Shown in pieces: positions 10,836 to 63,954 of a stretch of DNA of 64,000 bases. This DNA comes from Amphiscolops sp. MND2022 (taxonomy: Eukaryota). Both the position numbers and the translations under genes were made by a program. Under the pieces are notes generated by a model. The model did not search any database and was not told the origin of the DNA. It worked only from the letters and a program-made list of their open reading frames with translations. Every line of letters starts with the position of its first letter. The stretch's first letter is position 1. The stretch is taken from the NCBI GenBank assembly GCA_964187785.1, contig OZ076409.1, positions 59,832,001 to 59,896,000 on the forward strand, in the 5' to 3' direction.

Positions 10836-10906
10836 CGTCGTTGGTTAGATTCGAACTCACCACCTGCTACCTAGAAACTTGCTCTCTTTAACCAACTTCT
10901 GCTATC
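10836..10906 (-). repeat. tRNA-derived SINE-like head (Pol III A/B boxes), degenerate
   Basis: Minus strand reads tagcagaagttggttaaag...gagttcgaatc; no complete acceptor stem. Confidence 0.4.
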
Positions 10907-11044
10907 TAGTTGAATGTCTACAACTCTTGAAAGTGAACTTTTCAGAGTGAACTGGAAAAGACCATCTAGAAACTGAACAAGTCTTGCTTTTTTCCAATAA
11001 ACACTGTTTAGTAGATTAGAAATTGCGGGTATGCAAAAACTGGC

Positions 11045-21391: not shown

Positions 21392-21542
21392 GAGTTAGGT
21401 AAAAGTCGAATCCAATAGAAAAATAGTTGTGCATGAATGTTCCTGTAAGAATTCTAGAAAATCATTATAAAAGTTGCTTGCGACATTAAAGTGGATGCAG
21501 AAAGTTCACACAATTTCAGCAAGGGTATACAATTCAACTTAC

Positions 21543-22032: not shown

Positions 22033-22712
22033 CTTCATCAGAAATGAGCTACACATTCAACTCAACAGTTTTATTACTTTTTAATTGATTTTAAAATTTT
22101 CAATTTTTGACCCCATTTAAAGGGGTGCACTTATTTTCCCTTCCATGGCAAACAACTTGAAAAAGCTTCACATAAGTTTCGCAAAGAACGAAAAGTATGT
22201 TTAGGGTTTTTACCTGCGAAAAAACCTGTTATCATGTTCAGGAGATCTTGACCGTTTGTCATTGATCCCCTATTGATTTTGTTTGATGCTTCGAAAAAGT
22301 CTGAATATTTCAGAAAAGATAGAGTTTGGAATGACTCTAGTCAATGTTTTTATGAGACAACGGGTTATAACTTACGCGACTTACAAAGTCAGTTATCTCG
22401 GTATTGAGAAAACTCGAATACTATCATTTTTGATTCGTCTACTGGACAAACGGCATAAACTGGATAAATATACAAAAAAGGAACAAATCATACTTTGAAG
22501 GAAAAGCACTAACAAAATTCACCAACAAAAATTCCACTATTTGTTCCATAATCTTTGCTTCACAACTGATAAAGTAACGATTACTTCATAAGTTTTAACA
22601 AAAAATAGTTTGAGGGAAAAAACTGCGAACTTTTTGAGAAACGTAAAAATGCTTGTAGGTAGCAGGTTGAATTATTGTTTTACCCCGATTTTGTAGGCAA
22701 GGAGACTTGAGT

Positions 22713-35900: not shown

Positions 35901-38239
35901 AAGCCTAGCCACTCTATTTCGTTCTTTGCAAATGTGCATTTTCCCGCTTTTAATTGTACTTCTGCTTGGTCGAGCGATTTCAAAAATTCCCGCAGTTTAT
36001 CTAAATGTTCGACCTTGGTTCCTTTAGTTACAATTAAAATATCGTCTATGAATACAAATACTTCTCTAAATTTAGCTAAAAAAATGTCCATTACTTTTTG
36101 AAATTCTGTCGGCATAACTGACAGACCAATAAATCCCGTTACGAATCTGTATGTACCTGTTGACTCACCTCCAATTATTTGAAAATTACAGTGTTTGGCA
36201 TTTAATAGATGCAAGGGAACGTGACCGTATGCGTAGGTCTAATCAACCGATAAAAACCATGCCTCTCCTTTTTCTGTATCTAATTTTCTAGTTTTCTCTA
36301 GTTTTCTCTTTTTTTCTGCCACCATATCAAGTAAATTTTCCAAATTCGGCATTTGGTATTTATCTTTTTCAATTGCTTGGTTAAGGGCTCTTGCATCTAG
36401 CGCAATTTTTACCGAACGATCCTTTTTCACAGTCATTACTGTTGGTTGAATGAAAACGTCATCCGTTATTTCGTTAATTTGTTCGGCCATATTTATTTCG
36501 AAATATGGCTTTCTTTCAACAATCTACTTATTTCCTCATCTACGGCCTTTTGCAACTGAATAGGGATTCTTCTCCCTTTTTGTTGTGTTATTTTCGCCCC
36601 GGGTTTGAAATTTATCCGAACTTGGTGATTTTTTATCTAGCCTTTCCTTTCGAAAAGTTTTGGAAATTCTTTCACGAATTGTTTAGTTTCTGCTCTTAGT
36701 TCACTTTCTTTATCTACTACATTTACTTCCAACTCACCTTCTGGGACCAGATTGTATCGTACAGTTGATAGCTCTTCTCTACCAATGATCGACTTTGTTC
36801 CGTTTTTTGCAATGAGGATTCTGGCTTTCTTTATGCATTTGCCATTCACTTGAAGTTCACAAATTACATATCCCAGTAATTTGAAGGGTTTTCCATTGAA
36901 GTCCACGTATCGTTCGTTTTTGATCATTGGGCGTACTTGTAATTTTTCTCTTTTCATTATTTGTTTTATTTCATCCAATTCAAAGATGGTTACTGGGGAG
37001 CCAGTGTCTATCATGGTTTTGAATTTATTGGCATTTATAAATCCTTCAATGTAATATTGTTTGGAGGTCTCGCTTTCTGATTCCACTTTTATTACCAAAT
37101 AGCCCTCATCGTCCTCTTCGCCACTTTCTTCTGGATCAACTCTTTGCACTCTTTTGCCAATTCATCAACTATTGCCAACCTTTAGGTTAGACTCCTTTTT
37201 CTTCTGGTTGCATACTCTTTCAAGATGTCCCTTTCTCCCGCAGTAATTACCCATGGCATTCGGGGCTTTGCATTTGCACAAGTGATCTAATGTAAAAATT
37301 CCCTGCCCCACATCTCCAACATTCTCTTTGGTTGTTGCTGCTTACTGCACAGATGGGTTCATCTTTGATTTTCGGGTCTTGACTAATGTACCCATAGGAC
37401 TTCTGTCTTTTTTGACCATCATCGAAGGCAATGGCGAATTGTAGTGCCTCGGCAGGGGTTTCTTTTGGCTCCGTGCATAACTTTTCTTGGACGTGTTTAT
37501 TATTCATGTTAAGGACGAAAGTGTCGTGAGCAAACCCTTCTGTTTGATCTCCGAAATCACACCGGGCAGCAAGTCCGTTCAGTGCATTCCAAAATTGATG
37601 TAGTGTTTCCGTGGATTTTTGTTTTCTCGAGAGAAAAATATGTCTATCCAAAATCCGGTTTCTACGTGTCTGGAAACATTCTGTGCAGTTTTGCACCACA
37701 TTTTGTAGCTCGATTAGCAGAATGTTGATGTTCGGGAATTTATCCATCAGCATCTTTCTTCCTGTTTTTCCCAATGGATGAGTACAATTAAACTTACTAG
37801 TTTTCTTTTTGCAGGTATGTCGTCCAGATTTCCCATCATGGCAGCATTTCTTGGGTTTTGTTGGTCAGCCACTCGCAGAAGTTCGGTCATTGAGATTGAG
37901 TGCTTAGCTAAAACATCAACCTCAAATAGCTGGACCCACTGTTCCCAATCGTAGCCTGATGGGTTTTCTGCTTCTTGCCAGAAGTAACTGAGACCCGGGA
38001 GGGCTGAATTTGAATTGTCTTCTTCAGCTCGCAGCGCCATGTAGTAGCTTAGAGAATTCTAGCTTGAAGGAGTGAAAACAGTAACAGGATGTTATACTGA
38101 ATTGAATGACGTATCTTGTGTATGTGGCTATTTTTGTGATTTTGCCACTTTGGCATATTTTGGCAGGTTGTTGTTAATTAACTATTTTCTCACAACTTTA
38201 TTTACACAAGTGAAGGTGACAATATAGCCCTCTACCACA
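32922..38239 (-). mobile_element. Full-length but frameshifted Ty3/Gypsy LTR retrotransposon (Mag-like)
   Basis: 200-bp LTRs at 32922-33121 and 38040-38239 (about 7 mismatches); TSD CTTTT; PBS TGGCGCTGCGAGC (tRNA-Ser-like); PPT AGAGAGGGAAG; gag with two Zn-knuckle-like motifs, protease MIDTGS, RT FIDDIL, RNase H ELELLAVVW/SDHKAL, integrase HYGHAG..CQEC, DFAGP, RTDPG, NGKVER, in PR-RT-RH-INT order. Confidence 0.95.
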
Positions 38240-38918
38240 CTTTTACTTCGTACTTTTCTCTTGCAATAGTTCCATCAGCGATCACTGTTTCCTGCGCTTC
38301 GAAGTGATGAAAATACTCTTCAGCTAGTAAACAAAGTGCACCGTTAACTTGTTCTCGTATGGTAAATATTATAAATGGAGTCACCGCGTATAGTTAAGTA
38401 CAAAAATACAGGCCCCTTTGAGTGCTCTAAACTTTTTTGTACCCACAAGCTGCTGCTTCGAATTTGGAGTTGGAGTTCCAAAAAGGGCACAATTTTCTGG
38501 GCAATATAAAAATCACAAAATCATTTGGAAGAATTCTTAGACTCGAGCAGTTTCCGTTGATTATCTTGAATGAGTGGAAAGCAAAATGATGGAGATTTTC
38601 AGACCGTTGGTTTTTATTTGCTCCGTATGGAAAAGGAAACATATTCTCAACCGCGTCTTTGCCCAAATTTGATGTTACAATTTTATACTCAAAAAAAGGT
38701 TTTCTGGAAAAAAAAGAACGTAAAATATTAGATGCAACAAATTGCCCCAAATAGCGCAACAAAGAGATTTATAGATTTTCAAACCAAATAGACCATTTTG
38801 TGCCATTTTGATATGGTTTCGCGGGTTTGAATATCCACAGAGTTGAAGGGAAAACCATTTGGCAACATAATATAGTGTATATAGCAAAATTTGAAGAATT
38901 TGAGTTTGACGATCCTAA

Positions 38919-39664
38919 TGTAACGTCCGGCAGTCGGCGTTGCAGAAGTTTTTGAAAATTTCGATCAAAAATTCGAAATGTGCGACATCAAACAAGCACA
39001 TTCAAGATGGCCGACCCGGCAGGTACGAAAACCGTAGAGGAAGCAAAAAAAAAGGCAAAACACGCCCAGAGAAGGACCCAACCCACCACCCAGGAACGAG
39101 AATGTCCGAGATGTCATCACCCAGAAGGCGTGAGAATCAGGAATTCGGCCATCTGACAGCAAAAAGACAGGGTTTTGGCAGAAAAGTGCCAAATGAGACC
39201 ATTGTGCCCCGATGATGCCAGAGGCAGGAAGCCGATGATCGCCACCGAACTGTAACTGTATACTTTATTGGGGCCTATCCCCACCTACTTTGACTGTTTA
39301 TAGCGTATTTGGATAATGTTTGACCTACTAGGGCCTCATTTTAGTCCTTATTCACCAATATAATGTATTTCAGCTAGACACCTTTTTGGACCTCGGAAGT
39401 ATGTGGGAGATAGCAGGAACGCGCTAAAAACCTTAGGATTTGTTTTTACAGGCTTGTGGGGCGTGTCCGGACTTTGAGAGTGCCGGCACGTCGCCTCGGA
39501 GCTCTAACTAGAGGAGCCTCCTTAGACGTTAGAAAAGTCCCCCTTGGAGACCATTTTGGGATCAAAAACTAGTGTCTAGGTATGTAGTAAGACAACGGTC
39601 TCCTGTTTAAGCATCCTAGGCATTGTCCCTCTTCCTAGATGTGCGTCGCTAGCCGGACGTTACA
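38919..39664. mobile_element. Solo-LTR-like element (746 bp), TGTAACGTCCGGC...GCCGGACGTTACA, flanked by TAA/TAA
   Basis: 13-bp terminal inverted repeats with TG..CA ends; GC-richer than flanks; no coding capacity. Confidence 0.75.
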
Positions 39665-39859
39665 TAACATGAACCTAAAATTTGAATTTTTAAACGTTTC
39701 GTGCAAGGCTTGTAGTCTACTGGCACAGTAGTCTTTCCAGCACATTTAAACAGTATTGCGGTCTGCACTAAGTTATTTTTTAAAACCACTCAAGACAATA
39801 AAATATTTTATTTCCATGATACCTAATAATTGAAAATTGTCGGGACAAAAAATTCATTT

Positions 39860-40503
39860 TTAGTCGACGCTTTCAATAATAAAAGAACCCGACCATTACA
39901 GTCAATCGTTTTTTTTTCTTTTTTTTTAAGACAGACTAGAAGCGACGAACGTTAACGTTCAACTAAAGAAACTAAACGAACACCCGGGAAACGCATCTAA
40001 GTTATTCCAAAGGGTCCCCCCTTTGGTTTTTACTTTTTAAACGTAACCTACAAAACCGGACGGGACTAAAGGGTCCCCCTTTCGATTTTTTTCGGCACTG
40101 TGCGACTTTTTTTGTCTCCAAAGAGTCCCCCTTTTGGTTTGTTACTTTTTAAACGTAGCCTACAAAACCGGATGAGTGTAAAGGGTCCCCCTTTTTTACT
40201 TTTTCAAGGAAACTACAAACCGGACGTGCCTAAAGGGTCCTCCCTTTGGATTTTTTCGGCACTGTGCGACTTTTTTTCGAAAATTTTTTAATGTCCCCAA
40301 AGGGTCTCCCCTTCGAGTTTTTTGATATTTTGCAACTGAATGTATGTCAATAAATCCCAAAGGGTCCCCTTTTACATTTTTTGGCACTGTGCGACATTTT
40401 CCGAAAGAAAAAATTTCCAAAATTTCAAGTTTTTTTCAAAAAAATGTTTTGCGCTTTTTGAGTCTTAGATATAGCGCCGACTTTGGACGTTCCCGTCGTG
40501 TTT
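39860..40503. repeat. HINE-like repeat with AAAGGGTCCCCC minisatellite; related copies at about 26140-26531 and 32530-32921 (the Gypsy insertion target)
   Basis: Repeated aaagggtcccc / ttttcggcactgtgcgac units; terminus agatatagcgccgactttggacgttcccgtcgtgtt. Confidence 0.6.
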
Positions 40504-40611
40504 GTCTTTACTTAGACACCTTTACCTTAGACACCATTAACTCGTCGTAAAATTGCAATGTGAATTGGTTCGCGCGTTGCATGTAATTGGGTCGCTGCTA
40601 TTGGCCGTGCC

Positions 40612-41018
40612 TGTGACTATTCAAATCGTAGAATATTCAAAACGTCGAAAAAATTAGGGCTAATCAAATCGTCGAAAGAATTCTATGGCAGCGATTATTT
40701 TCAGCCTATTATTTGAAGAGGTAAGCATATTTGTTGTATGGGTCGGTCGCTTCGCTCCCTTTGCCAAGTAGCAACATTGGGGCATGGCCATATGGCACGT
40801 CGCTCCGCTTTGCTTCGCTCCTGCATTTAGGGCACTAGGGGTATGTGAGCATAGCTGATTACATTATCGTAATTAGTTCCTCGCTTGTGTTGTATTCATT
40901 TTATTGAATTCAATTGGCTCATTAAAAGACATTTTGGTCACGTGACTTTGACGAGTAGTATTTACTGCGTGTAAACGGCTTTCGACGCTTTGAATATTCT
41001 ACTATTTGAATCGTCCCC
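40612..41018. mobile_element. MITE with GACTATTCAAAT..AGAATATTCAAA arms and the shared core cassette
   Basis: About 36-bp inverted arms at 40615-40650 and 40980-41015; core 40722-40855 is the reverse complement of 13310-13440. Confidence 0.65.
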
Positions 41019-42617
41019 GCCTGGCGCTATACCAAGTAAACTGCACGCTGCAAGCGACGTGTTTGCGTCTGGTTTAGTGATTTAGTGAAGAGTCGCAAAA
41101 TAATTAATTTATTGTGTTTTCTAGAAACAATTATTTAAATACCGATTTGCAAAACAATAAATTATTGGAGTCTCAAAGCGTTAAAAATAAATTATTTATT
41201 AATATTATTGCAAATATTTGAAAATAACTTATTCTAACATCCCTGTACTGGCATCAATCGAGACGTGGAAATGTATCCTGTTGCTTTCGTCGACCTTGTT
41301 TCTCACTAATTGATGACGTGGCATTCAATGAAGCTCATTACTGTTTAATGATAAAATTGTTTTTGTTAACCCTGCCACTGATCATCTCGTTTATTCCATC
41401 ATTCGTTTCAAGGCATTAATCTTTGATTGAAATAAAATACTTTTTTTCTCTGAAAAACCAACGCGATGACGAAAATTGGAACAAAAGGGTTGCCTTTTAG
41501 TAGCTCGATCTCTTTTGATGATAAAATACTAATTGAAAAATATCTCTAGACGTTTACAAAAACCTTGTTATGATCAAAATATTCTCAAGCAATAAATGGT
41601 AACGAGAAAATTTTTAATCAAAAGCAGGTTTTCGTGTTAGTTTCATTTGGTGTTTTTCAATTACCTTTATGAACATCGCAAGAAAGGCAAACTATTGGAG
41701 ATTCGATTGAAAATAGATTAAATTTGTTCTTTAAAAAACTTCAAAAGACAGCAATTAAGATATCATTAAAAACCGAAATTGTTTTCAATAGTCTCAGATC
41801 AATTCATTGCCGAAAGTAGCTTTCTCAAAGCACTGAATCTTGTTAAAATTTGGAATAATACACTATAATGATTCTCGCAAGAAAGATTTTTTTAACCATT
41901 TTGTTAAATTGCTTGCAAAGGTCGAAGCTGATGAAAAAAATAAGACCTCAAGAAAACTTTTCAATTAGCATTTTGTTTTGGCGTCTAATTGTTATAGTCG
42001 ATTATCCAAGGTATGCCTCAGGTTAGTTGAGGAAATGAACAGTAACGCCCACATAGTAAAAGAGTAGTTTCGAAAAAGTATTTTTCAACCAAAAGTTTAG
42101 GACCTTGGATCAAAAGAGCAGCTGTTTACTTGGAAATTATTTGAAGAAATTTCTTCAAATATTAATTTAATCAAATAATTGATCAAAAAACATTGTTTTT
42201 ATTCGGCCGTTAAGAAAAAGAGGTACTCGAAAATTACTTCAATCTATCTATTTGACTAATACCCAACCCTTTCTCACTTTTTGTAATTCAATCATTTATG
42301 TGTCATATAATTCGCAAATCATTACTGGTGTTATCCCAGTGTTCGAAGCCATGGAACGCTTGCCATAATCATGATTAATTTTGCTAAATTATGGTTAACC
42401 ATTGTACCCTTGTCAAGATCATGTCATATCATGATACATGGAACGCTTGTCAAGATCAAGGCAAGATATTGACAAGATAACCATGGTTTGTAATGGTTCT
42501 TACCAAGGATATCATGTAAGAAGGTCGATTGAACCATTTTCAGTTGTTGACCGTGTCCCTAGTTGGAATTTACTATTTCTCTATTTGGAAGGCCAGCAGG
42601 CATGTCTATGAATGCAA

Positions 42618-45600
42618 GGAGACCGGGAATACCATGAAGACCTGAAATAACGTCTAAGGAATAACATCTAAATGCAAAACGGGAATAACGTCTAAAACGG
42701 CGAGCGGGAATAACGTCTAAAGCGGCGTGTAATTATCACTTTTTCCAGAAAAATGGAACAAAGTACCTTCAATTTTTTTCACATAACCCGTCCCCGACTG
42801 AGGACTCCAAGCCAACGGCTGCATGACGTGGTAATCGAGACAGTGGAAAAACTCCCTGAAACTATAATAATTGTTGACTGATAAATGCAGGAATGCCTAC
42901 TCAGCAATAACAAGCAATCCTTGTTACGGTGTTTTCTACATTACACAACTCTCCGAAAACGTTCCGTAAGACACCCACAGATCATTGAGCCAGAACAGAA
43001 TGAAATGAAAGACTATATCTCTGTCAGTTTTATTCCAAAAGAGGGGGAAACATCTCGCTCGAACGAGATGTAGCAAAGTTTACCCGGATCAGTATAACAC
43101 TGAGCACCGACAGAGTGAACATCTTCATGTACCGAAGGCTGACGTTAGGCGACTGGAACATAAATCCAGGACACGGGACTATGATTGATTCTCATTCGAC
43201 AGCACCAGTAATGAAATTAGAACGGGGAGAAATATCATCGGAAGCTACTTCAGTTACAGTTTAGCCGAGTGTGGTAGCCAATGTGGTGGAAACGGAAGGC
43301 AACGTTGTTGTGCCGGAATGAAGAAATACGTCTGAAATCCCAGAAGGAACAACTGCCGACGTGTCAGGTTGAGCTACTGAAAATCAAGATCTTTATTCAG
43401 GTAATCGGGTAAAACTAAAAGGCTGATCACTAAAACATTAGTTCAACGACCCATAGAAGTCAGAAAGATTTTACTAACTTGAAGCAACGAGCGCAACTTC
43501 CACATCCGAGTGAACAACGTCATCATCGGAGTAGTTGTAGTTTATCTCATTTCCACTAACAAAGCGTGCCACAGAAGCAGCAGTAGAACGAACAGTTTCC
43601 TCGACTCCCATTGAAAACAGCAGAAGTTTCTTCAAAACAACCTAATGGAAAAGAACAATTAAAAGAAAATGAATTCAAGAAAAATCATTTTGAAACAGTG
43701 ACGTCACGTAGACGTGATCCGTTCGGGAAGGAATTGATGACGTCATAACGACATAGCTGAAAAAGAAAACGAAGATAAGAAGAGAATGTTTTCCTTAATG
43801 TTTCGGCCAATCACAGCGCAGACGGAAGCGAAACGCTTTCAAAAATTAAGGCGAACCGGAACGAAGGAAGGAAATCAACCAATAGGAATTCTGTGAATGT
43901 ACTGACCTCAAAAGACGAATATCAGTAATCGGAAATTGAGAATCCTCGCTGATGTGAGAAAGAAATGAAACGACAAAACCCGCATATAGTCTTCGTTTCT
44001 TTCCGAGTGGTCCTTTCACAGCCCGCTCCCGGTTGTTATCGCTGTAAACGCGATTGTTTCGGTTAAATATACTGGTGTAAACTAATTGAAATGCTTTTTG
44101 TGACTTCATCAAGACAGTTACGCTAGCAGTACGTTATTATTAGGAATGATATTCTGACGTCACTAATTAGAAAATTGGAAAGATTTTCTAAAGCACAACG
44201 TAACGTCTCCGTCAACCGCTGTTCAGCTATAGCTAATCTTGATACGTACGGAGCGCTTACGGAGCAAATTGTAAAATTGTGAAGCTATACCTAATTTTAA
44301 TACGTACGGAGACGATACGGAGCGAACTATAAGATTGTAGCAGCCAAAGATGCAACGTAAGGGCAACGTCATATTATTGTATATTCTCATTTGAATGAAG
44401 TTTATACTAATGTTTTCATTGAGTGTTCTTCATTTATACTATGAAATCGAAGTTGTCAATCGAAGTAATAACGTGTTTATGTTACTAATCGATGTTCTGA
44501 TTAGCATATTCTCAAGTGTGGAATTTGTTGATCGAAAAATCTCCGTTGTTTTAGTATTTATGTGATTGTATCTTAAGCTTAGATATATTTGTGTCCTTCT
44601 ATGTTCGTGCTAATAATATTGGCAATAACTAGAATGTATTATTCCGGCATCATTCGTTCCTTTTCTTTCATCTGCTTTCAGATATTTCCTCTCTCGAAAT
44701 TATTTGCTCCGTTTTAGTTGCGTTGCCATTTTTGCTAGTCATACTTTTATCTTGAAAATTTGGATTCCCAACTTGAAAATTGACTAATTGATCACGCCGG
44801 CGTGCCTCCATCGATGGAAATATTGAGCAGACTTTTATTTTGCCGCCATTTGAAGACTAAACAGGAAATAGAATTGCCTGAACAAAAATGATTTCAACAA
44901 ATATTACGGAACAGCGACGCGACTAGGAATTTCTATAAATGAAATTTAGACGCCGGACTGAAATAATATCAAACAACTGGGTTTTTGTATGAACAAACCA
45001 GATTCTTATGATACCTAGGAATTTTTAGGTGAGGAACAAATGATGCTAGGAAGGTACAAGTATGTTGATTTTGTAAATTAATTCAGACAGTTATTAGTGA
45101 TCTTTGTTAAACTGTTTGTTACGTTCGTAAATGATTCTTCTTGAAAAATTCAAAACTGTTTGAAACATATTGTTTTTTATTATAAATGACAACCCGAAGT
45201 AAGAAGAGCCTGAAAAAATATTCATTGCACCTACATCAACCCCTATAAAAAACTAAAACCACTACCCAAAATAACACTCCGTTAGGTAGTCGTAACAGGC
45301 ATATTGTTCTGCAGACTATTGATGAATATGTAATTCAACAAATACATTGTAAGAACCTTCTATTATAGTTGTTGAATTCTTTGGAACAACTTCTAAAATT
45401 TTGTGAAGAAACGCGACTCAATTAAATGTTTTCATCTCCGGTATAGGAAAATGAGCGGAAAATTATTGATGAAATCTTGAAAAGAAATGCATACCTTTAT
45501 TTCACTTTGATACTATTGATACTAAAAAAATAGGAAAAAATGATAAAATTGCCAAGAATTTTGATGTAATATTAGAAAAAGTAGAAGGAAAAACTGCGTT

Positions 45601-46100
45601 TAGAAATATTCATATAAAACGAATGTTATCACACGTATGTTTCGCATCCATAACGAATGTGGGTTCTGTGAGTCATTAGATACTTTCGAACTATAAACAC
45701 ACAGAATTCAAGCTCCAAACTTGAAGCATTCACAAAAATTTCTGCTTCTGAATTGAAAAGCAATTCTGTGGGGCATCATAGAATTGTGGTTAGAGCTTGC
45801 CTTTGAAATGTTTGGTTAGACGGGAACCAAACAAGTGTGGCAGTTATACAAGATCATTTCGAGAACCTCAAATAAATTTTCAAAAGGAAAGGCTGAAGTC
45901 ATAATATCAGAATCCTTGATCTGCATATCACTCTACCTAAACTTCATGAACTTTGGAACTTAATCTCAAAGCTAAGTAGAAGATCATTTCGTTTTTGTTT
46001 GGACGTTTCACCAAACCGTTCGGGCTTGAACAAAATTTGTTTAGCACTGTCGAAAATGGAAAAAAAGTATTTTTTTAAGGTTGTTCTGGAGCGTTTCTCA
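42618..46100. mobile_element. Decayed multi-ORF, virus-like or large-DNA-transposon block of unknown class
   Basis: Terminal GGAATAACGTCTAA repeats (42645-42722); spliced minus-strand ORF from 43611; plus-strand ORF relics at 44760-45053, 45186-45425 and from 45426, the last two abutting as TAA-ATG; no hallmark gene recognised. Confidence 0.4.
43695..44165. promoter_or_regulatory. Putative bidirectional promoter: three CRE/ATF palindromes (TGACGTCA) and two CCAAT boxes
   Basis: TGACGTCA at 43699, 43738 and 44155; CCAAT at 43807 and 43879; lies between divergent ORF relics. Confidence 0.4.
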
Positions 46101-46543
46101 ACAAACAACACCTTTACTAGTTTTTGACTGAGTCTGGTTCATTTTCAGTCATGTCAGTAATTTCTAAAAAGTTTCAAGTATCTTCGTAAACTATTGTCCC
46201 ACGAAATTAGTTTTATGGTAGTTTAATACTATGAAAGAAAATCTAGACACACATACATAAAGTTGGAATATGGCCATTGAGGGTAAAAAACAGAAGATTT
46301 AGTGATTTTCAGTTCCCACATAAAAATATTAGCGGAAAATGAAAATATTGAGAAAGTTGAGTGAAAATGTTATATTTAGAATTGTCGAATTTTAGAACTA
46401 ATAGATACTTCGTCTGTCAAAAAAAACCACAAGTTTTGAGCTCATTAGAAAAGATACACAATGGTCATTGCAGTAATTTGAAACTTTGAGTTGACATATC
46501 AGCATGAATTTATTTTCAGATGGAGTTTTCTGACAAAGTTAAC

Positions 46544-49500
46544 TGTAACGATAAGCGCTGGCGCTTGAACCGCAACGTAGAGTGGAGGAACTAGAACAGC
46601 GAATATAATCTGGGACCTAGATCTCCGCGGCTCTAGCTCATTTTCCCTCCGAAGGAGCCAGTCCCAAGGTGGGGGAACCGTCTTGTAGGACGCTCTCTGG
46701 CCTGGTCCCAGTCTGTAACTGCTGAGAATAACGGGCATCCGTCTCGGCCCTTTGCCTGGGACCACCGTTTAGACAGCCTTTAAAAACAATGCCAAGAATA
46801 AACAGTGTAAATTTCCATCTTCCATCTGATATCGGAATAATATCTAAAATGGGGAATAAGATCTAAAATTGCACAAACCAGCGCTGGCGCTAGTTCAAAC
46901 GGCTAAATCCAGCAAAAATACATCAAAGCACACATCGGAATGGCAAACCACACAGCTAAAAAGCTGGGGCGCAGGGGCTCCAAGCACCAAACAAGGACAA
47001 TTAAGCGAAAAGACTCATTTTACCGGTTTCTGCTACATAGGGTAGCATAATGCTGAAAATCGATAAAACCGGTGTTAGCACCTCAAAAAGAGTCTATATT
47101 CGGATGTTCTTGCCGTCTCTGGCTTCTGTCATGGCGGCGCGCCCGTATTTTTGCTCGTTCTTGCTCTTTGTTGTCGAAGTACCTGCCAATTTCGTGGAAA
47201 CAGCGAAAAGAGCAATCACATGCTCAGTGCCACGTCACACATCGGATTAGAATTTTTGACAAAATTTCTGAACATGTCAAAGTTGCAAAATCGGTTGATA
47301 TTGCTGTACCAGAGCTTGCCGTTACATCACTACCCGGGCTTTATGCATGACGTCCCTGTCATGCGGAGAAGCTGGCATTGAAAACATCGCCACATCATGA
47401 GTGCAATCCACGGGGTCTCAAACTGGTGATGTTGCAAGGGTCCAGTGGCACTGTCATCTTTTGCTGATTGGACAACTGCTTGGGTCTTGCCATCCAGAGA
47501 ACCTGCATCGTCCAGAAACTGTTGAAACAGAGCTAGCTCGAGAGCTAGAAAACCAGTACTCAAAAATGCACTTTACAATTGATCAAATCCAAGATTCCAT
47601 ACATCAATCAAAAAAGCACCACTTTTTTAGCACGAGTTTTCTGCAAAAGTCTGAATAGGATACTGCTAGCACTTTGGTTTTGGACGTCTAAAATTTCTTT
47701 TGCGGAGCGCTCACGCTCCAGAGCGCACGTGGTTCTCAGCAAAACATCTTTTCCACGGCAATAAAACTTCAGTTTGCGTCACAGTTAAAAGTTCTTTTCG
47801 CTAAAACTTCTTTTCAGTAGGAAAACCACTGTTTGAAAGGAAAACAAGCTGTTTTTTGACACTTTGTGTTCACAGTTAAGCTTGGTTTGGGCAACACGCA
47901 CTGATGTGCAGCTCCATACTTGTATAGAGTTCAGTAGCATCTGTCAAGGAGCGCATCAGAAGCAAACTACGAACTGCTCGGAAGAGTACGCACTGGAGTA
48001 AAGCATACAAAGGTAGATCAAATCCTGCTATTTGCAGATCAAGAGCGCGCGCGCTCCTTATTTTTCCGGATATCACGTTGGAATCTGGAGGAAACTTCTG
48101 GAAATCTTGGAAAAAAAACAAAAATAGCACCTTTCGGGCGTAGCAATACATGTAGAGTTTTTCGGTTATTTATTGAATTAACAGAAGTATTTGAATTCAA
48201 ACATCTCAAATAAAACTAAAAACAAAAATGTCGCGACGTACGTATACATGACTACTAAAATTACGAAACAAAGTTGCAGAAAAAACTGCTCCAACAAGAA
48301 CATCACGCTGCGAGGTATCCATTACCAAACGTAGTGATATCCTCCGGGCGTTATCCAATTGAGTTGATGAATGTAGGGGTGTTTGTCTTCAACTGAGGCT
48401 CCCCGGGCCTTAGTTGACTCCCCGGGCCTTAATCGTTGAGCATCCTCTTTCACATGAGGATAGTGAGGAATGGACAAAATTGAATGCCTGACATAAAAAT
48501 GCAGAAGGACAAATTAAGCGTTGACGACACCTCCTCCCCCTTTGAAAAGAAGTGGAGTGTGGTTTGGACTGGATAGACATCACCATCCAATAGCAGCAGG
48601 ACGTGCAACAAGCATGAAGCATCAGGAAATCCGATAAAGAAAACTGTGGAGACTGGGTCTGTCTCAAGCCTGGAATAGTTGTTCGGAGGACGGCCACGCC
48701 TATGTCCCTTCGGTCGAAGCGACCATGGTAGAACTTGGCGTGGTGGACGGCCACGGCGACGTCCATCATAAAGGGACAAGAGAACTTTTTGCCATGAGTG
48801 CTCATAGTCTGTGCGCGGTGGTCGACCACGTCTATGACCAGTTGGTCGAGTTTTAGCAGAACCACCAGGCAACCAATTGATAAAGACTGGAGGGTCCACC
48901 TGAATAAAATCCTGTAGCCCACCTTTAGCAGAATGTGGCTCAAAGGAGTCTTTCAGCAAACTCGGTAGCAACCGCGTAGTTGATATTAGGGACTTTGTTC
49001 CAGGGAAGTGAGAGTTGCTTAAAGAATCCCGCGATAAGGAAGTGGAGGGTGAGATTGATATTCGTTCTATCTTCGTATCACTTGAGTAGAGGTTGCGCTC
49101 GCGCAATCCATTGTCACCGGCGTGATATTCAGGCAGAGTGTCAGCATTACACATGGTTGTGGTGTCCAAAGGTGTTGGGTCCACCCCCATGTCTTTTGTC
49201 GGCGGTGTCAATGGGTCTGATTCGACAGCGTCTGAATAATTTATATCGGCATTTCCGAGGTGTACCTGCACTTCTGCATTTATCAACTGCATTTGTGCTA
49301 GCGCTCGCGCTAGCAGTTTCTCCCTGCGAAGTGTGCTTTGTTCCAAAAAGGCTGATATCTCATCCATCTGCTGCTCCAGGGCCTCTAATTGTTGGTCCTG
49401 TTTCTGATAAAACTGAATACTGGCTTCATGGAGAGATCTTTTCGACGACGATACTGAACTAGGACTGGGAATCCTTATGCTCCTCTCCGGCTCGGTATTC

Positions 49501-52500
49501 TGAAAGTTAGATGGCATTGAGTCTAGAAAATTGGAGACAGGTTTGAAACTATCCTTCAAAGGCCAATCTTTCACGTTCAAATCCTCTAGCTTCGTCGATC
49601 GGTCATGTTCATCTACCATTTGGGATTCATTTTGAGGTTGAACATCCATTGGTAATGCTGCACGAACACTCTTTTGTGCTGCACGGACACTCCTTCCCCC
49701 TTTAAAAAAGGAACGGAGGCGGCGGGAGATCTTCCCATGTTTATTTTCAGCTTTAGAGGTTCCGAACTGCATCACTAGAACAACCTGTGTACCCAAGTTC
49801 AGTGTCAGGGTCAAAGCAAGAGAATTTCTAGCAATCACAGCGTGCTGAGAATTGCTCAACACTTTGCACGCTGCTCTGTGGGCCAGAAAATTTTGCTCTA
49901 GAGCAAATTGCTGCAGCCAAGTTGGATAGTGCGCACCAAACAGACAGTCGAGCGGTTTGTCGACCTCTCAACCTCAATGGATTTGGATGTGTTGTGACTA
50001 CCCGAAAGAGTTCTCTGCAAATTTGGCGTGATATTCGGCTCTGATGCTACTCGATACAGCGGAATAACACCAAAATGAGGCACCAGAGCGTTCAAAAAGG
50101 TGTCACACTCGGGCAATCCGGTCAAATTATTGTCACTAGGAAGTTGCTCCTCTCAAAATCTCGTGATTTTGGCTAAGTCGGAACACTCAGGGTATCTTTT
50201 GGATATCGGAAACCTTGCTCAAGGTAACTCCTAGAGATTTTCGTATGGAAAAATGTAGTCCAGAGTGCGTCGCAGGCACTTAAAACTGCTGCCTTGAACT
50301 GTTCAGGATCAAATTTCAAAGTTCCAGAGGAGTCCAAAATTTATGACCCCTGCCGGCAATTTTTTTGAACCGTAGGATTTGCCTCGTTTAAACCCAGGAA
50401 GGTCTACTGGGTCCGTTCCGTTGGAAAATGAAGGCTTTTTGGGTCTGCCTCTTGTACAGCGGAAGTATTGAGGATTTACATTGATTGTTTTTTGATGGAT
50501 TCTTGGGATTTTCGTTCAAAATGTGTGTCTGAACAGAGTCAAATTCAGTTTTATCAGTCGTACTGGGTAAAAAATGACACAGCACGTTTCGTCAGCCACA
50601 CAAGTCAGAAAAACATTCTTCCGTAGCTGATAATTGCCTCCAGCTCCAAGCTAGAGCCTTTTTCAACGATTTTTGGATTTTTCAACTTTTTTCGAAAATC
50701 ACTCAGATGGCTTTTACAAGTGCTGGAAACGTGGTATCGGGCTCAAAATTGATCACGCGATCACACGTATAGCCAGCTACACTACAGTAACAACCAATGA
50801 GAATTCAGACCACTGGGCAAGGTTTAGATCTGATACTGACGTTCCGTATCACCGTGTCTCGATTGACACGATTTTTTACATGCAATCAAAGACTCTCGTC
50901 CACAGTGCTGAGCTCTCGAGCTCACTTTTTTCAGCAACGGTGCACCAAATGACACTAATAAGAATAGTCCAGGGCAATGTAATCCCAACTTCCCAATAAG
51001 GTGCGCCGATAGTTCCAAAAAAATAATCCAATTCGTTACAATACACAGGATATCACAACTTCAAGTAACAAAATGCTATGATCCAGCAAGGCAGCCCACT
51101 CGATACTGATCAAATATCACACGCACAGCAATGAACTAACTGCTGGGAGTTCAAAATAGGGGTTTCCACAGGTTTTCAACACGTAGAAATGACTTTTTCT
51201 CACTTTCCCAGTTTTCGTCTCGGTGAGACCTCTAAGTGACACAATGAATATGCACGTCCGGGAAGAGTCGAAATTAGTTCCAAGGGTTGTAGCGTGCTGG
51301 AAGGTATACAGCACTTCCGGATTGATGCACTGACCCAAAAAGTGAGTCCAGAATCGGGGTATTAGGATCCAGTCACGGGTCAGAGGTTTTTCAGATATTT
51401 TTTGGGTTTTTCAGCTTCACTTTAAAAAAAACTCCAGAGGCTAGCGCTAACGCTAGAAACGCAGGATCGGCTTCAAAATCAACGACACAATCCCACGTAA
51501 ATTGCGATACACAGGAATAATAGCTGATTTGTGCTGAGATGACTAGGTGAATTTTCAACACAGTACAGACGTTCGGTATCACCGTGTTCCAATATGCAGT
51601 GTTCTTCACGTGTCAACTCAGATTCCGGCAAACTGCAAAAAGCTCTCAAGCTCGTTTTTTCGGCAACAATACGATAAACTTGCACTGGTTACGGTAGTGG
51701 GCAGCAATTTGGCCCCACTCTTTGAATAAGGTGTTCAGGCAATCCCACAAGACTTCGTAGAATTCGCCTTCTTGCGCACCTTCTTGTGCAGTTTGTTTTA
51801 GTCAATTTCTCAACAGATATAGTAGCAATTGACACCAAACTTGGCAGACGCTGTCAGTAGGCACCAACCACGCTGTTAGAGTAGTGAAATAGACGGTGGT
51901 AGTCTTGCAGGGGGTCTTCTCAAGGATTTGGACCTCTGCTCGTCTCGGTGAGGACTTGAGAAAATTGATGTTTTTTCAACGTCCAAGACTTCTCAAAACA
52001 CGTTTTAAGGCTCGTAGGCTGTGCAAATTTGCACAGCGCTTTTCCACAAGCACACTGGGCCAGAAAATTAACCTGGTTTGGGGCAAGAAGTCTCCAGTCA
52101 CCCACAGGAAGAATTTCACAGAATTTTTAGATTTTCCAAAATTCGCACAATAACACTCAAGAGGATCGTGTGTGCGCTGGAAGCGCTGTATCAAGCCCAA
52201 AATTGACCAGCAGATCTTAGGTACACGTAGGTTTACGAAAGTGAACACACTTTTGAGCTGCGCCCCTTCTACACAGTTTCACCTGGGTACAGACGTGCGG
52301 TACCACTATGTACCGAAATACACTGTTTTTCACGTCTTTTTCAAGATTGCGGTCCACTGGAAAGAGCTAGCAAGCTCAAATTCTCTGCAGCAACGTAGAA
52401 ACTAGCACAAGTTACAATGATTGGCTGCAATATAGCCCCACCCGTCGGCTAAGGTGCCCGCGTTACTCGGAAAAATTAAGAAAAAACTGCCTTTTTGCGC

Positions 52501-55137
52501 ACCTTTTTGGGTGCCACGTTTTTCCTATTTTCTCAACAAGTATCACACAGATCGGCACCAAACTTGGTAGTTTATGCCAGTGGGCACCTACAATGCCACT
52601 AAAAAGGTCGAATTGAAGCGCGAGCGCTTATTTGAGGTTTCGACTTCTTATGGACGTTGTACACGAAAAAACACTGTTTTTGACTACTTTTTTCACAATT
52701 TGACCAAGAGGATCACCTCAGGAAGTGACACGGCGGGCCAAAATGGGACCAACGTGTTGCCCCACTGGTCACAGCACTGCCACAAGCCCTCAATTAGCCG
52801 TGCCCGTTAGGTATAAGGCACTGTCGGTCCTACAGTTTTGGCCTTTTTCGACTACTTTGGCACTTTCTGAGGTCAAAATGTCAGATAGCTTTTCTCAACT
52901 TTGGTTACCACTAGGCTCACCAAATTTTCGGCAATAGCGTTTATTTTTATGGTGGTTGCGAAAATGCAACCATTTTGTGGCTAGGGTTCGGGAATCTTTG
53001 ACCCGACCCTAACTATTGGAAAGTCCGGTTTTGTGGAAATTTGGTCAAATTCAATGCGTTTTTCTACTTTTCTCAGCACTGAATAGGAATTTTACATGCG
53101 GTTTTCACCACTATGCGGTATTTTTATTATAAAAACAGAAACTGAGAGCGCGCAGGCTCCCATGTCACGAAAACACTGAGTGCCCCAGAGGTTTTAATGA
53201 TGTACTCTGGCACTCCTGAAACTGGCCAAAAATCAAGGTTTTTCGACCTGTTCTCACCGAAAAAACGTTACAAACTCTCTTAAATCCTATTTTCGGTACT
53301 GTGGAGTGTGCCCCAAACTAATAGCAGCACGGAAGAGGCAATTACATTACAATCTAGCACTCTTCCAGTGGCATTTCATAGTGGTTTTTTGCCAATTTCG
53401 ACAAAAACCGGTTTTTTTCATACAAAACACGTCTCAAAAAGGTTTCCAACGGCCTTTCTGGTACTCGTTACGTTATGTAGCAGCACTCTCGAGGTCTTGA
53501 GCTACTTTACAACCATTTTTGCAACTTCTGTGACTAATACTTTGAGCGCTCGCGCTCGTACCAAGAAAAACACTCAAAAATGCCAAAAACGACGTTTTTT
53601 CTACTTTTGCACCTAAAATCGGACTTTTCTCACTGAAAACAGCTGCAAAAGCACACACTGAGTTGCAGTACGGAAGAACTAACGTGACCAAATGATTCCC
53701 CATCAAAAAATACGCAATCGAAAAATTTTTTCATACCACACTCCAAAATGTCGATTTTTCCGGATTGAGGGGTGGTACCTTCGCCGTCTTTTTTCTCAAC
53801 ATCCAGACCAGCCAGAGAAAAACGATTTGCACCGTCGGCAACGTCAGTGCTTGCTCTACCTTTCCACCAAATCCCATCCTTCTATGAGCTCTGTAGAAGA
53901 AATGAGAGAGGAGAGTCGGGAACACTCGTTTCTGCTCATCTATCGATCGGATGGACTGTGGTTCAACCATCAATTTCACCTCTCGTACATAAGCGCAAAT
54001 CACTGAAAACAGCTAGAAAAACCTGTTACACACCAGTAGCGACGTGCTACTGTCCACTACGCTTCAAAAAAGAGGACCCGCTGATGGGAACCTTGCAATT
54101 TTAGACGATATCTGTCAACAAGCACCTGTTATCAAAACATACCAAAGGTACTCGGAAAAATCCCCCGAAGACTGGAAAAATACCAAAATATAACATCATG
54201 ACATCTAAAAAATTTGGAAAAGCTCTGGGTAAACGTCTCCTTCCAGAGTCCAATCGTTCTTGGCGTCAAACACCAGGGGGCCAGATCTTTTAAAAACCGC
54301 TAGGGAAAGCTTCCCAAGACGATCCCTCTGTGGTCGCCAAAAAATGAGTTTCTATGTAACGATAAGCGCTGGCGCTTGAACCGCAACGTAGAGTGGAGGA
54401 ACTAGAACAGCGAATATAATCTGGGACCTAGATCTCCGCGGCTCTAGCTCATTTTCCCTCCGAAGGAGCCAGTCCCAAGGTGGGGGAACCGTCTTGTAGG
54501 ACGCTCTCTGGCCTGGTCCCAGTCTGTAACTGCTGAGAATAACGGGCATCCGTCTCGGCCCTTTGCCTGGGACCACCGTTTAGACAGCCTTTAAAAACAA
54601 TGCCAAGAATAAACAGTGTAAATTTCCATCTTCCATCTGATATCGGAATAATATCTAAAATGGGGAATAAGATCTAAAATTGCACAAACCAGCGCTGGCG
54701 CTAGTTCAAACGGCTAAATCCAGCAAAAATACATCAAAGCACACATCGGAATGGCAAACCACACAGCTAAAAAGCTGGGGCGCAGGGGCTCCAAGCACCA
54801 AACAAGGACAATTAAGCGAAAAGACTCATTTTACCGGTTTCTGCTACATAGGGTAGCATAATGCTGAAAATCGATAAAACCGGTGTTAGCACCTCAAAAA
54901 GAGTCTATATTCGGATGTTCTTGCCGTCTCTGGCTTCTGTCATGGCGGCGCGCCCGTATTTTTGCTCGTTCTTGCTCTTTGTTGTCGAAGTACCTGCCAA
55001 TTTCGTGGAAACAGCGAAAAGAGCAATCACATGCTCAGTGCCACGTCACACATCGGATTAGAATTTTTGACAAAATTTCTGAACATGTCAAAGTTGCAAA
55101 ATCGGTTGATATTGCTGTACCAGAGCTTGCCGTTACA
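46544..55137 (-). mobile_element. 8.6-kb non-autonomous LTR retroelement (LARD-like) with apparently identical 783-bp LTRs
   Basis: LTRs 46544-47326 and 54355-55137 (TGTAACG...CGTTACA); PBS-like TGGCGACCACAGAGGGAT at 54339-54322 (tRNA-Arg-like); flanks AAC/AAC; no RT, RNase H or integrase motif found. Confidence 0.9.
48450..49862 (-). CDS. 470-aa ORF of unknown function inside the LTR element: coiled coil plus three RRGRPP (AT-hook-like) motifs
   Basis: Longest complete ORF in the track; QDQQLEALEQQMDEISAFLEQ...; GHRRGRPPR, GRRRGRPPR, GHRRGRPPN. Confidence 0.5.
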   Translation of the reverse strand: MLSNSQHAVIARNSLALTLTLNLGTQVVLVMQFGTSKAENKHGKISRRLRSFFKGGRSVRAAQKSVRAALPMDVQPQNESQMVDEHDRSTKLEDLNVKDWPLKDSFKPVSNFLDSMPSNFQNTEPERSIRIPSPSSVSSSKRSLHEASIQFYQKQDQQLEALEQQMDEISAFLEQSTLRREKLLARALAQMQLINAEVQVHLGNADINYSDAVESDPLTPPTKDMGVDPTPLDTTTMCNADTLPEYHAGDNGLRERNLYSSDTKIERISISPSTSLSRDSLSNSHFPGTKSLISTTRLLPSLLKDSFEPHSAKGGLQDFIQVDPPVFINWLPGGSAKTRPTGHRRGRPPRTDYEHSWQKVLLSLYDGRRRGRPPRQVLPWSLRPKGHRRGRPPNNYSRLETDPVSTVFFIGFPDASCLLHVLLLLDGDVYPVQTTLHFFSKGEEVSSTLNLSFCIFMSGIQFCPFLTILM

Positions 55138-57299
55138 AACATTCGAACAAACAGTTTTTAAGGGAAGGTCATCGGAACTACAAAACTAGAAGACGTATCT
55201 CAAGGGAATCTTGTTTATGAACTTTAGCTTTTGAAGATGAAAGACAAGCGCGATAAAATTCTCTATTGATAATCCATTTTTAAGAAGCAAAAGTATTGAG
55301 AGAAAAATTAAAAGTAGGGTGGCGTTTAGGGAGAACAAAGAAAGTGGGAAGTAAGAAACGAACCTCAAGACAATCCAGAAAATCGTTTTTTGATTTTATA
55401 AATTTTATTCAACAGAAGCTTATCTTCAAAGTGCAGCTACCTTAAAAAGTTGCCTTTTGAATGTTGTCTTTCATCTGCAGAACAAGTTAAGAGGAACATA
55501 AATATGTTCTTTTTTATCATGAAAAAACCTAAAATTTGCAGAGAAATTGCAGCCTCTCAAGCCTTAAAGTGTCTTTGGGGAGAAAATGCTTTCATCAAAG
55601 ATACATACCAACAACTAGTGTTTAGTCATATGTAAGCTGTTTTTCTTGTGAAATGAGAATTGAAGAATTTTAGCTTCACTAGTGAATGATTTAAAAACTG
55701 AATGATAGCATCTTTCATTGAACTGATTGAACTGACTGACAAGTTGATGAAAACATTTTATGGGTTTGCAAACATTTCACGAAAGTTCTCCGAAGTCATG
55801 AGCCCTTTTTTGTTGAACATTTACGCAAATTAAGTCCTGAAGAAAACAGAAGCTTTCAAAAACATTTGTTCTTGTTCTGCCGACAATCATGAAAAGAAAA
55901 AATTTTAATTGGAAATCATGAAACAAAAAGCTTCTTCGCTGCTGCAGCTCTAAATTATAAGAAAAAAAGTGAAGCAAAACACCTAGCTGTCACTCAATTG
56001 TTAAGGACATATTATATATTATAGTCTTAGATAGACGTATATTATCGTCTTAGCAATGGAATTACTTACCCAGTTTTTCGGGACAACATGCCAAAAGTAA
56101 GAAATTGAATGTAGGTGCCTAGAAAGGTTTTGTCACGGGAGGCAGAAATTTGGTCGTCAAAAATTTTATTATAGGAATTTTCGTCGTATTAATTAAAGTT
56201 AACAGCGTTCACGAAAAGATATCATTTGAATTATTCCATTATTTAATTATCAGAACGAGGTCTTAAAAACAAGTTTCATTTTGACACCAAAATTGAATCA
56301 AAAAGTTAATTGCATTCAATAAACTCATCGAGATGCTTATTGAGAAATGGTATCTTTTCAGTCCTGAACTATTTTACTGGCGTGCGTTCATTTCACCCCA
56401 TGATCATTTCACCCCAGTGAAAAAGTGGAACACGAAAAATCTTTTAAATTTTGGCGGAGATTAGCATTGAAATTTTTTACTATACAATTTAAGCTTGTTC
56501 CAGGGGTGTGACTTTTTGCTTTTTTTGTTTTTATAATATATGCTTATATGACGAACATACCGTAAATCAACAATTTGCTTTTCAAAATCCGGGGCTTATA
56601 CGCCCGAATATACGGTACTTGAATTTGTCCGAGTCGAAAGTCCATTATTTAAATACGATTCATATAAATACGATTTGTTCAAATGTCTATACTTCCTGAA
56701 TACTATACAAGAAAACCGAATAATGTTGAAGGTAGTAGGATGCAAACAATCTATTCTATTCGAACTTAAAAACGACAAGTATATCTCCTGGAAAACATTT
56801 GTGTAGTTACGTTGTATTAAAAAATTTGTTAGTAAACAACTGTCTATCATCTGTCCGAGGGGATCTGTTAACAATGACCCCTAGAAGTAGGAGATGAGAC
56901 AGATTGTATCGACAGTTCAGTCGAAAAGTTGAAAAGTTTGGCCTTTGCTTCAATTTGAACCCATTGTCTAATGCTACGGAGACAATCGAATTACCAATTG
57001 AACAAATCTGCAATAACCAGAACTGGAATGGGATCCGTCAAAATCTTCAGAACTTTCCTAAAAAAACTGCTGATTATTGTTGGAGAAATGTTTTGTTGAA
57101 AGAAGTAGTCTAAAATCTCTAAAATCCCTGTGAACAAAAAAATAAGTGGTTTTTACTGTGCAGAAATTAATATGTCGTTGTCCGATTACCTATGTGTCCA
57201 CCGTCAATTTATTATGATGCAAACCAATCACACCAAATTCGTGCGATTAAATTTTTGTTTCTTCTTTGAAATGGTTCATTACTGCGTCAAACGTCACTA

Positions 57300-58145
57300 C
57301 CCTAGTTGAAAAAAAATACAAATGTTGCAAGAATCTTGCAAGATGTTTGCAAGATCTTGCCAGACAATGCATTTTTCTGGCAGGTATCTTGCAAGATTCT
57401 TGCAAGATGAAACTTGAGCTTGCGAGATTCTTGCAAGACAAACATTTCTCTTGCAAGATTCTTGCAAGATATGCAATTTTTAGATTGTTGTGTTCAAAAT
57501 GATCCAAAAAGTCCTCGTATCATGCTTCAGCCTCGTTACCTTTGAAGTTCTAGTTTGACAGAAAGACAACCATATGTTAATTTTTTCGAATAGTTCGTGG
57601 TTACTTTTGCGAAATTTTGGTGCCGGTGACTTGAAATTTTCACTTAAGTCCGAGTTTTGTCAGTTACGTTTTTTTTTCGTTTTTTAGTGCACCGATAAAA
57701 AGACCGGTGAAAAACTAGTCACTTCAAGAGCCGTGCTTTTCCTTGGAAAGGTCGACTGTATTAAAACTTAGTAACTGTAACTTCGGGGTTCCTTTGCTCC
57801 TAAAGCGCCATTTATCTAAGAAAGGAAACTTTCACCTGTGATTGCGCCTGTTTTTGTCTCTCTCTGGAAGCAAAAATGGACAAGAAACTCTCTGGTGCCC
57901 GTGTTGGCCATTTTCAGTGAATTTTTCGACAAAAACAGTTTGCTCTTGGTTTGATGTATTTCTTGCAAGAATCTGACAAAAATTATTTCTTACAAGAATC
58001 TTGCAAGATTCTTGCAAGAACTATTTTTTTTCTGTCAGGTACTTGCAATAAATGTATTTTTTGCCAGAATCTTGCAAGATTTGTATTTTTTGTCGAGATC
58101 TTGCAAGAATCTTGCAAGAAGTATATGTATTATTTTCAACCAGGG
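57300..58145. mobile_element. MITE with CCCT(A/G)GTTGAAAA TIRs, TA flanks and palindromic CTTGCAAG subterminal arrays
   Basis: ta|ccctagttgaaaaaaaataca ... ttttcaaccaggg|ta; tcttgcaaga repeated in both arms. Confidence 0.8.
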
Positions 58146-63500: not shown

Positions 63501-63954
63501 TGTTTGACAAATTAGTGTACTTTTAAGAAATTTTACCAAAATTTGAAATGTTAAACTCCATTTTTGATAGGCATGCAGAATGTTTAAAAAACATAGAATT
63601 TTTTATATGAAAAGTTAGTCAGATCGACTTGATATCAGTGAAAAATCCAATAAGCGTTTTAAAAAACACATCTACATTTTCTAGAAAAAAATCCTCAAAT
63701 GACCGCAAACTGTAAAATTTTCCAATTTTTGACGTTTTTTGGCGAGTTCGCGCAAACTTATAAAAATATTGATTGGTTAGGCTTTGGTATCCACACAAGC
63801 CGACCAAAATCAAATAGTGTGTTTAGTCATTTCTTGAAGTGTTTCCTACTGAAATGGGATGGGTTTCCCTAGTGCAATGGCGACTCTTGAGCTTGAAAAA
63901 TATGTCATTGCTAGAACATTTTGGAATATATCCTGCTGGTCAGCTCGCGTCTTG
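60569..63954. repeat. Two tandem copies of a 1.69-kb non-coding unit
   Basis: ORFs 61379/63072 and 61440/63133 are offset by 1,693 bp; high but imperfect identity; units end in cctgctggtcagc.cgcgtctt. Confidence 0.9.

Follow-up and report, generated by a model that had tools for sequence, protein, structure and literature searches.

Integrase joins the two CA-3' ends of a long terminal repeat (LTR) element to opposite strands of the target, and repair of the resulting stagger produces the target-site duplication (TSD); among retroviral intasomes of solved structure the stagger ranges from 4 to 6 bp, and the enzyme that makes 4 bp requires the strongest bending of the target (PMC9410886). An LTR superfamily with 3-bp TSDs has been described as Troyka (= Kuafuorterviruses; Kojima 2025; PMC12440569, PMC11673190). 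Given this precedent (PMC12440569), a 3-bp TSD as such is not new for LTR retrotransposons. Here we describe two insertions with 3-bp TSDs in 64,000 nucleotides of Amphiscolops sp. MND2022 (assembly GCA_964187785.1, contig OZ076409.1, positions 59,832,001 to 59,896,000 of the forward strand), the whole of which we call the window. One is a solo LTR and the other an 8.6-kb element, and they probably represent a Gypsy lineage with TG...CA ends that reached a 3-bp stagger independently. The combination of a 3-bp TSD with TG...CA ends and Gypsy-type proteins may be new: no TG...CA Gypsy lineage with 3-bp TSDs was found in a literature search that did not cover Repbase and subscription journals.

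Like Troyka, these are LTR elements of an animal with 3-bp TSDs (two of two insertions here) and with non-autonomous derivatives. The order protease, reverse transcriptase (RT), RNase H, integrase (PR-RT-RH-IN) is also common to both, as seen in the putative partner family described below, and is the order of BEL elements as well. On the other hand, Troyka termini are CG...CG (CGCCA...TGGCG), whereas those found here are TGTAACG...CGTTACA, and Troyka LTRs measure 100-400 bp as opposed to 746 and 783 bp. The zinc knuckle of Troyka has the spacing CX2CX8-10HX4C and that of the partner family CX2CX4HX4C. Troyka is described without a GPF/Y motif, whereas the integrases of the lineage found here have GPH (partner family) or GPY (the relative L004) at the position of Ty3's GPF. 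Troyka-type CG...CG ends hidden 5 bases inside the termini were considered and rejected, since the outer five bases are present in both LTR copies and so are the element's own.

Ty3/Gypsy elements are resembled by the 8.6-kb element in its direct TG...CA LTRs and 18-nt tRNA primer site, and by the partner family in the PR-RT-RH-IN order, the canonical knuckle and a DD(35)E integrase that can be aligned to Ty3 through GPF (in the variant GPH). The differences are a TSD of 3 bp instead of 4 in the Drosophila Gypsy group (PMC3276498) and 5 in a neighbouring Gypsy element of the window, a primer site 15 nt off the LTR, a long host-restricted branch and a long Pol tail. The typical TSD of 4-6 bp is not part of the phylogenetic definition of Ty3/Gypsy (Metaviridae). 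The 8.6-kb element we take to be LARD-like, i.e., a large non-autonomous LTR derivative. It shares with such derivatives a long non-coding interior, intact LTRs, the lack of enzymes and presumed mobilisation in trans, but differs in having kept a 505-codon open reading frame (ORF) that appears to be a rearranged N-terminal piece of Gag with RGRP motifs and exists in hundreds of variants.

Two insertions with 3-bp target-site duplications

Both insertions are flanked by exact 3-bp direct repeats:

38916-38918, no strand: 3-bp duplication TAA, left copy, solo LTR (letters read)
38919-39664, plus strand: solo LTR, 746 bp, TG...CA, 13-bp perfect terminal inverted repeat (sequence and alignment)
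39665-39667, no strand: 3-bp duplication TAA, right copy, solo LTR (letters read)
46541-46543, no strand: 3-bp duplication AAC, left copy, long element (letters read)
55138-55140, no strand: 3-bp duplication AAC, right copy, long element (letters read)

The long element extends from 46544 to 55137 (8,594 bp) and has the same TGTAACG...CGTTACA ends as the solo LTR. The observation of a 3-bp duplication at both insertions is real. An earlier note on this window had reported the triplets TAA and AAC, and its coordinates and letters are correct, as are the common 7-bp termini and the 5-bp TSD that it gave for the Gypsy element of this window; we place this element at 32922-38239 and read its TSD as CTTTT. 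Its statement that flanks of 4 and 5 bp do not match also holds, with three or four mismatched positions at each insertion: the solo LTR has 3 mismatches at 4 bp, 4 at 5 bp and 4 at 6 bp, and the long element 3, 4 and 5, respectively. Since the longer flanks are mismatched at both sites, substitutions cannot account for decay from a 4- or 5-bp duplication; an indel at the junction would be required.

Short matches are easily found when the ends are free to move. Matching 3-bp flanks occur at 10 of 475 segments that have TG...CA ends and an inverted repeat of 7 bp (the solo LTR counted), and sliding the boundaries by up to 7 bases gave a duplication of at least 3 bp in 6/225 and 10/225 shifts. 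The argument for a 3-bp TSD therefore depends on ends that are fixed in another way. The two LTRs of the long element are identical at 783 of 783 bases and the first base beyond each end differs, which fixes its termini independently of the TSD. The ends of the solo LTR were defined by TG...CA, a perfect inverted repeat of 13 bp and the 7-mers common to the other LTR; among all boundary pairs tried, TG...CA ends are kept by the unshifted pair only. Local alignment with the flanks included was of no use for setting these ends, as it extended into the flanking DNA. In the flanking DNA, the chance of a 3-mer match is 0.024 per insertion and 5.6e-4 for both. Divergence between the LTRs of the long element is below about 0.4% (rule of three on the 783/783 identity), so there was little time for its TSD to decay. 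The earlier note had named two ways to fail, wrong termini and chance or decayed matches; both are unlikely in view of the fixed ends, the low joint chance and the youth of the long element.

The two reconstructed target sites both hold TAACAT (38916-38918/39665-39670 and 46540-46543/55138-55142), with the duplicated triplet offset by one base. This may point to a preference for certain targets, or be coincidental.

The relation between the two LTRs was examined by end-to-end alignment of the solo LTR (plus strand) with the LTR of the long element (minus strand), in which 437 of 844 columns are identical. The global z score is 7.9 against 100 dinucleotide shuffles and 5.7 after removal of 15 terminal bases, and in the other orientation 0.2 and -0.8. 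Judged by this alignment, the solo LTR is collinear with the LTR of the long element and distantly homologous to it, and lies in opposite orientation in the window. The LTR interiors, which the earlier note had called different, are indeed diverged, but they are not unrelated. Since the LTRs are homologous yet far diverged, the two insertions belong to two families of one lineage. Collinearity with a true LTR likewise indicates that the solo element is an LTR and not a TAA-duplicating DNA transposon.

The 8.6-kb element and a putative Gypsy-type partner family

The sense strand of the 8.6-kb element is the minus strand. In that direction it consists of the 5' LTR, a spacer, the primer site, a leader, an ORF that we call ORF-X, a non-coding stretch of about 1.1 kb, a weak purine tract and the 3' LTR:

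54355-55137, minus strand: 5' LTR, 783 bp (LTR comparison)
54340-54354, minus strand: spacer of 15 nt from the 5' LTR to the primer-binding site (letters read)
54322-54339, minus strand: primer-binding site, 18 nt (17/18 bases complementary to the tRNA-Arg 3' end with CCA)
50539-52596, no strand: within the 5' leader of 4.3 kb, diverged tandem repeats (about three, with a period of about 730 bp and 58% identity)
50254-50337, minus strand: leader segment whose reading frame, in many relatives such as P0073, continues directly into the Gag N-terminal linker (protein comparison)
48450-49967, minus strand: ORF-X, 505 residues stop to stop (ORF and relatives)
47327-47342, minus strand: weak purine-rich stretch where the polypurine tract is expected (letters read; putative function)
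46544-47326, minus strand: 3' LTR, 783 bp, identical to the 5' LTR

A search of the element with the Gag-Pol proteins of the partner family found no protease, RT or integrase in it, and from its coding content the element is judged non-autonomous. Its identical LTRs point to a very young insertion. The 64-kb window yielded no third copy of either LTR and no tRNA by ARAGORN, and Rfam gave no match at the gathering score. Decayed LTRs as an explanation of the leader repeats were rejected: the best z of at most 3.0, obtained with simple shuffles, is unconvincing.

The pattern used for the tRNA search was derived from the primer site itself and thus gives the type of tRNA and not the host's own tRNA; the tRNA-Arg (L007, from another source) was called by ARAGORN in one of seven viral loci, and the match ends at 18 nt. 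The gap between LTR and primer site is usually 0-5 nt. Priming at 54322-54339 would produce a cDNA with 15 extra bp at its U5 end, which would have to be removed. In the neighbouring Gypsy (32922-38239), whose integrase is unrelated to that of the 3-bp lineage, a TGG primer motif adjoins the LTR, as opposed to the 15-nt gap in the 8.6-kb element.

ORF-X has no match in Pfam, and a search of the ESM Atlas with it gave nothing usable. Relatives numbered 241 among 7,999 scored candidates, and all 120 that were listed are unnamed ENA records; a profile-free search of representatives gave 158 matches. A search for longer forms among 8,000 candidates yielded two proteins, each of which contains an aspartyl protease. 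The link to a coding partner comes from relatives in which the N-terminal half of ORF-X is fused in frame to Gag-protease-RT. In P0168, a cluster member, a single frame holds this half followed by Gag, protease, the start of RT and RNase H. In a second type of fusion the element's leader (50337-50254) is joined to the same Gag linker. Among 319 ORF-X-type proteins, a set that includes fused forms found beforehand, 8 contain the capsid region of the family and 38 the Gag N-terminal linker. ORF-X itself weakly resembles this linker (E 0.005 over 39 residues), and its C-terminal half has three RGRP motifs, which we take to be AT-hook-like.

Of 8,000 candidates, the Gag-Pol part of P0168 retrieved 117, and at their head stand clusters whose members number in the hundreds; P0352 and P0399 have 1,094 and 895, respectively. 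The Pol order in P0352 and P0329, which belong to the partner family and not to the window element, is PR-RT-RH-IN, and the integrase of the family has an intact DD(35)E triad and a zinc-binding domain. In 118 scanned proteins, the knuckle CX2CX4HX4C occurs in 40 records of the family, and the Troyka spacing was found only twice, both times in outside rows and not in the family. WRGPH is present in 14 family records, aligned to the GPF of Ty3, and WRGPY in the relative L004, while Pfam Integrase_p58_C matched none of the three lineage proteins tested. The best solved relative of the family is Ty3 Gag-Pol.

Phylogenies were calculated for RT (47 rows: 18 lineage rows that we chose and 29 outside rows) and, as a quick tree, for integrase (37 rows), both without clade-labelled references or an outgroup. 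In the RT tree the 18 lineage rows form a clade on a long stem (support 100), within which the ORF-X-fused RTs are placed. In the integrase tree the 15 family rows form one long-stem clade far from the window's 5-bp Gypsy. Identity of the family integrase to most outside rows is 29-36%. The integrase of L004, from another source, is 53-58% identical to the family, so the lineage also occurs outside this host. The contig in question (L004:1-2486) is a 2.5-kb piece of a bacterial metagenome-assembled genome that carries the lineage integrase ORF, most likely as eukaryotic contamination of the bacterial bin.

Downstream of the integrase, the family Pol continues in a tail (the C-terminal 600-800 residues of P0352, P0381 and P0390; L004:1450-2486) with RGRP motifs, a cysteine motif and an alpha/beta domain of about 180 residues. 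A macrodomain at the Pol C-terminus is a weak lead (Atlas 0.89, Macro on 11% of members) and was not retained; the single-sequence model had a pLDDT of 45.6 and fold searches gave no clear outcome. A Gly-to-Ala replacement after the second catalytic Asp was also dropped as a signature of the 3-bp stagger, as five outside integrases have it too. The neighbouring Gypsy was rejected as the partner, its integrase being 25% identical and its TSD 5 bp.

DNA of a coding partner was sought in contigs from several sources. Of 50 pattern matches to ORF-X in metagenome contigs none was confirmed, and for Pol in viral contigs the confirmed numbers were 0/3 and 0/40. Alignment of Pol to metagenome contigs gave 3 confirmed cases out of 88; these are distant, at 26-32% identity, and lack TGTAACG LTRs. 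The only case confirmed among 23 in genome contigs is the 2.5-kb fragment L004, which has no LTR, and the LTR-end patterns gave 0 and 0 in viral contigs. The earlier note had proposed finding the autonomous partner with these termini and placing its integrase in a phylogeny. A Gypsy-type family with an integrase was found and forms one clade, but DNA that combines these LTRs with Pol was not.

Origin of the 3-bp duplications

In Drosophila, members of a clade share their TSD length, and off-mode TSDs amount to 1.8% (PMC3276498). With two independent 3-bp duplications, a 3-bp stagger as a trait of the lineage is the simplest account, and we regard a TG...CA Gypsy lineage that acquired it independently as the likely explanation. 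Both insertions would come from one Gypsy-type (Metaviridae-like) LTR lineage, greatly expanded in the host genome. The 8.6-kb element would be a very young non-autonomous derivative that keeps the LTRs, the tRNA-Arg primer site, the long leader and a rearranged N-terminal piece of Gag, and that has lost protease, RT and integrase; most likely it was reverse-transcribed and integrated in trans by the Gag-Pol of the family. The solo LTR would be the remnant of a sister-family insertion in the opposite orientation. The DDE integrase of the lineage would join the CA ends to the two host strands at positions separated by 3 bp, and the 3-bp duplication would result from repair of the gaps. The termini, the duplications, the LTR homology, the primer site, the fusion of ORF-X to the Gag of the family and the intact DD(35)E are observed; we infer the stagger itself, its 3 bp as the usual length of the family, and this integrase as the maker of both insertions. 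For the fuller proposal, a Gypsy-type TG...CA lineage present in thousands of copies in one animal genome, with a 3-bp stagger independent of Troyka and perhaps also trimming of the 15-bp U5 extension, the balance tips only slightly in favour. The idea of an LTR lineage with a 3-bp stagger, put forward in the earlier note, has gained from the LTR homology and the Gypsy-type integrase family, but still stands on two insertions.

Several points weigh against this explanation. The insertions number two, and the net duplication is read from their flanks and not from an empty site. Rare off-mode pairs are also enriched, since the window was chosen in a very large scan. The integrase of Rous sarcoma virus gives a mixture of 5 and 6 bp (PMC9410886). 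We found no feature of the integrase that is peculiar to a 3-bp stagger. No DNA joins TGTAACG LTRs to an integrase gene, the link being through protein chimeras only. No ORF-X-fused record reaches the integrase, and these records lack the zinc knuckle that other Gags of the family have; they are chimeric and could be recombinants of two lineages. Between ORF-X and P0324, a Gag of the family without the fusion, there is no significant similarity (E 0.13). Finally, a primer site 15 nt off the LTR and a weak polypurine tract are left unexplained by a standard model.

The main rival is a lineage that normally makes 4-bp or mixed 3/4-bp TSDs, caught twice on the short side, either as short variants or through loss of one base at junction repair. 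TSDs of off-mode length usually differ from the mode by 1 bp (PMC3276498), mixed lengths are made by some integrases (PMC9410886), the finding was selected from a large scan, and the 4-mer TAAC occurs at both junctions with the missing base on the 5'-LTR side each time. This coincidence is weak, however, since any 3-bp TSD can be redrawn as 4 minus one, and at an off-mode rate of 1.8%-5% two of two insertions short by one base would be expected with a probability of about 3e-4 to 2.5e-3 (our calculation). We consider this rival unlikely. It is improbable, to a somewhat greater degree, that the 3-bp trait is real and the integrase came from another partner, Troyka-like or other, the ORF-X/Gag fusions being recombinants with an abundant unrelated Gypsy. 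Troyka is a described 3-bp lineage, the connection to the Gypsy-type family consists of chimeric protein records only, and the contig searches gave no DNA of a coding partner. Against this stand the TG...CA ends as opposed to CG...CG in Troyka, the two fusion types that join the element's leader or ORF to the same Gag, and the weak likeness over 39 residues (E 0.005) of ORF-X to the N-terminal linker of that Gag.

We give very little weight to the view that there is no true duplication, with chance 3-mers in AT-rich DNA or bases dropped from short A runs on both sides by the assembly. Free-end matches are common (10/475; 6/225 and 10/225 shifts) and the window holds a 6.4-kb tandem duplication of 99.97% identity that is maybe an assembly artefact, but the ends were fixed independently with a joint chance of 5.6e-4, and the clean 5-bp TSD of the neighbouring Gypsy and an ORF-X open over 505 codons make systematic base loss unlikely. 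Hardly credible is a 746-bp element that is a non-autonomous DNA transposon of the PIF/Harbinger or Zator type, which would leave one LTR example. PIF/Harbinger elements make TAA/TTA duplications. So does Zator-1 (PMC12905397), and the solo element has both a TAA duplication and terminal inverted repeats, perfect over 13 bp. An interior unrelated to LTRs, as expected of such a transposon, is not what it has: it is collinearly homologous to the true LTR over its whole length, in a single orientation (z 7.9, and 5.7 when the termini are left out), and has the same 7-bp ends.

If the lineage does have a 3-bp stagger, a Ty3-like integrase would extend the range known for these enzymes and, next to Troyka, offer another example from nature in which to study what determines the spacing. 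The tightest spacing known for an LTR integrase would then have arisen twice, the second time in an enzyme that can be aligned to the Ty3 integrase, and a 3-bp TSD alone would not identify Troyka. There would also be a practical consequence. The parameter table of LTRharvest gives mintsd values of 4, 5 and 4 (PMC2253517), and structure-based LTR finders with a minimum TSD of 4 would miss, mis-bound or under-count an abundant family. Should the majority of copies prove to have 4 bp, the window would hold an ordinary non-autonomous Gypsy derivative and a solo LTR.

Other features of the window

The neighbouring Gypsy served as an internal control outside the lineage:

32922-38239, minus strand: older, frameshifted Gypsy element, 200-bp LTRs 96.6% identical, 5-bp TSD CTTTT

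Most of it, together with host flank, is spanned by the 6.4-kb tandem duplication (24805-31185/31194-37574), which at 99.97% identity is either very recent or an assembly artefact. Immunoglobulin (Ig) I-set domain exons at 10871-11284 and 21539-22048 on the minus strand belong to a multi-exon host gene split by repeats, and identify the DNA as animal. Fragments at 14800-15920 contain what we presume, by eye, to be decayed transposase motifs of the Tc1/mariner type; two ORFs tested there had no Pfam match. A direct repeat of about 330 bp (83% identity) at 18765-19099/19900-20225 has no evident TG...CA ends. Inverted arrays of an 11-bp unit containing TTGCAAGA occupy 57308-58124 in a foldback-like arrangement, and a tandem repeat with a 1,693-bp unit and 96.9% identity extends from 60562 to 63953.

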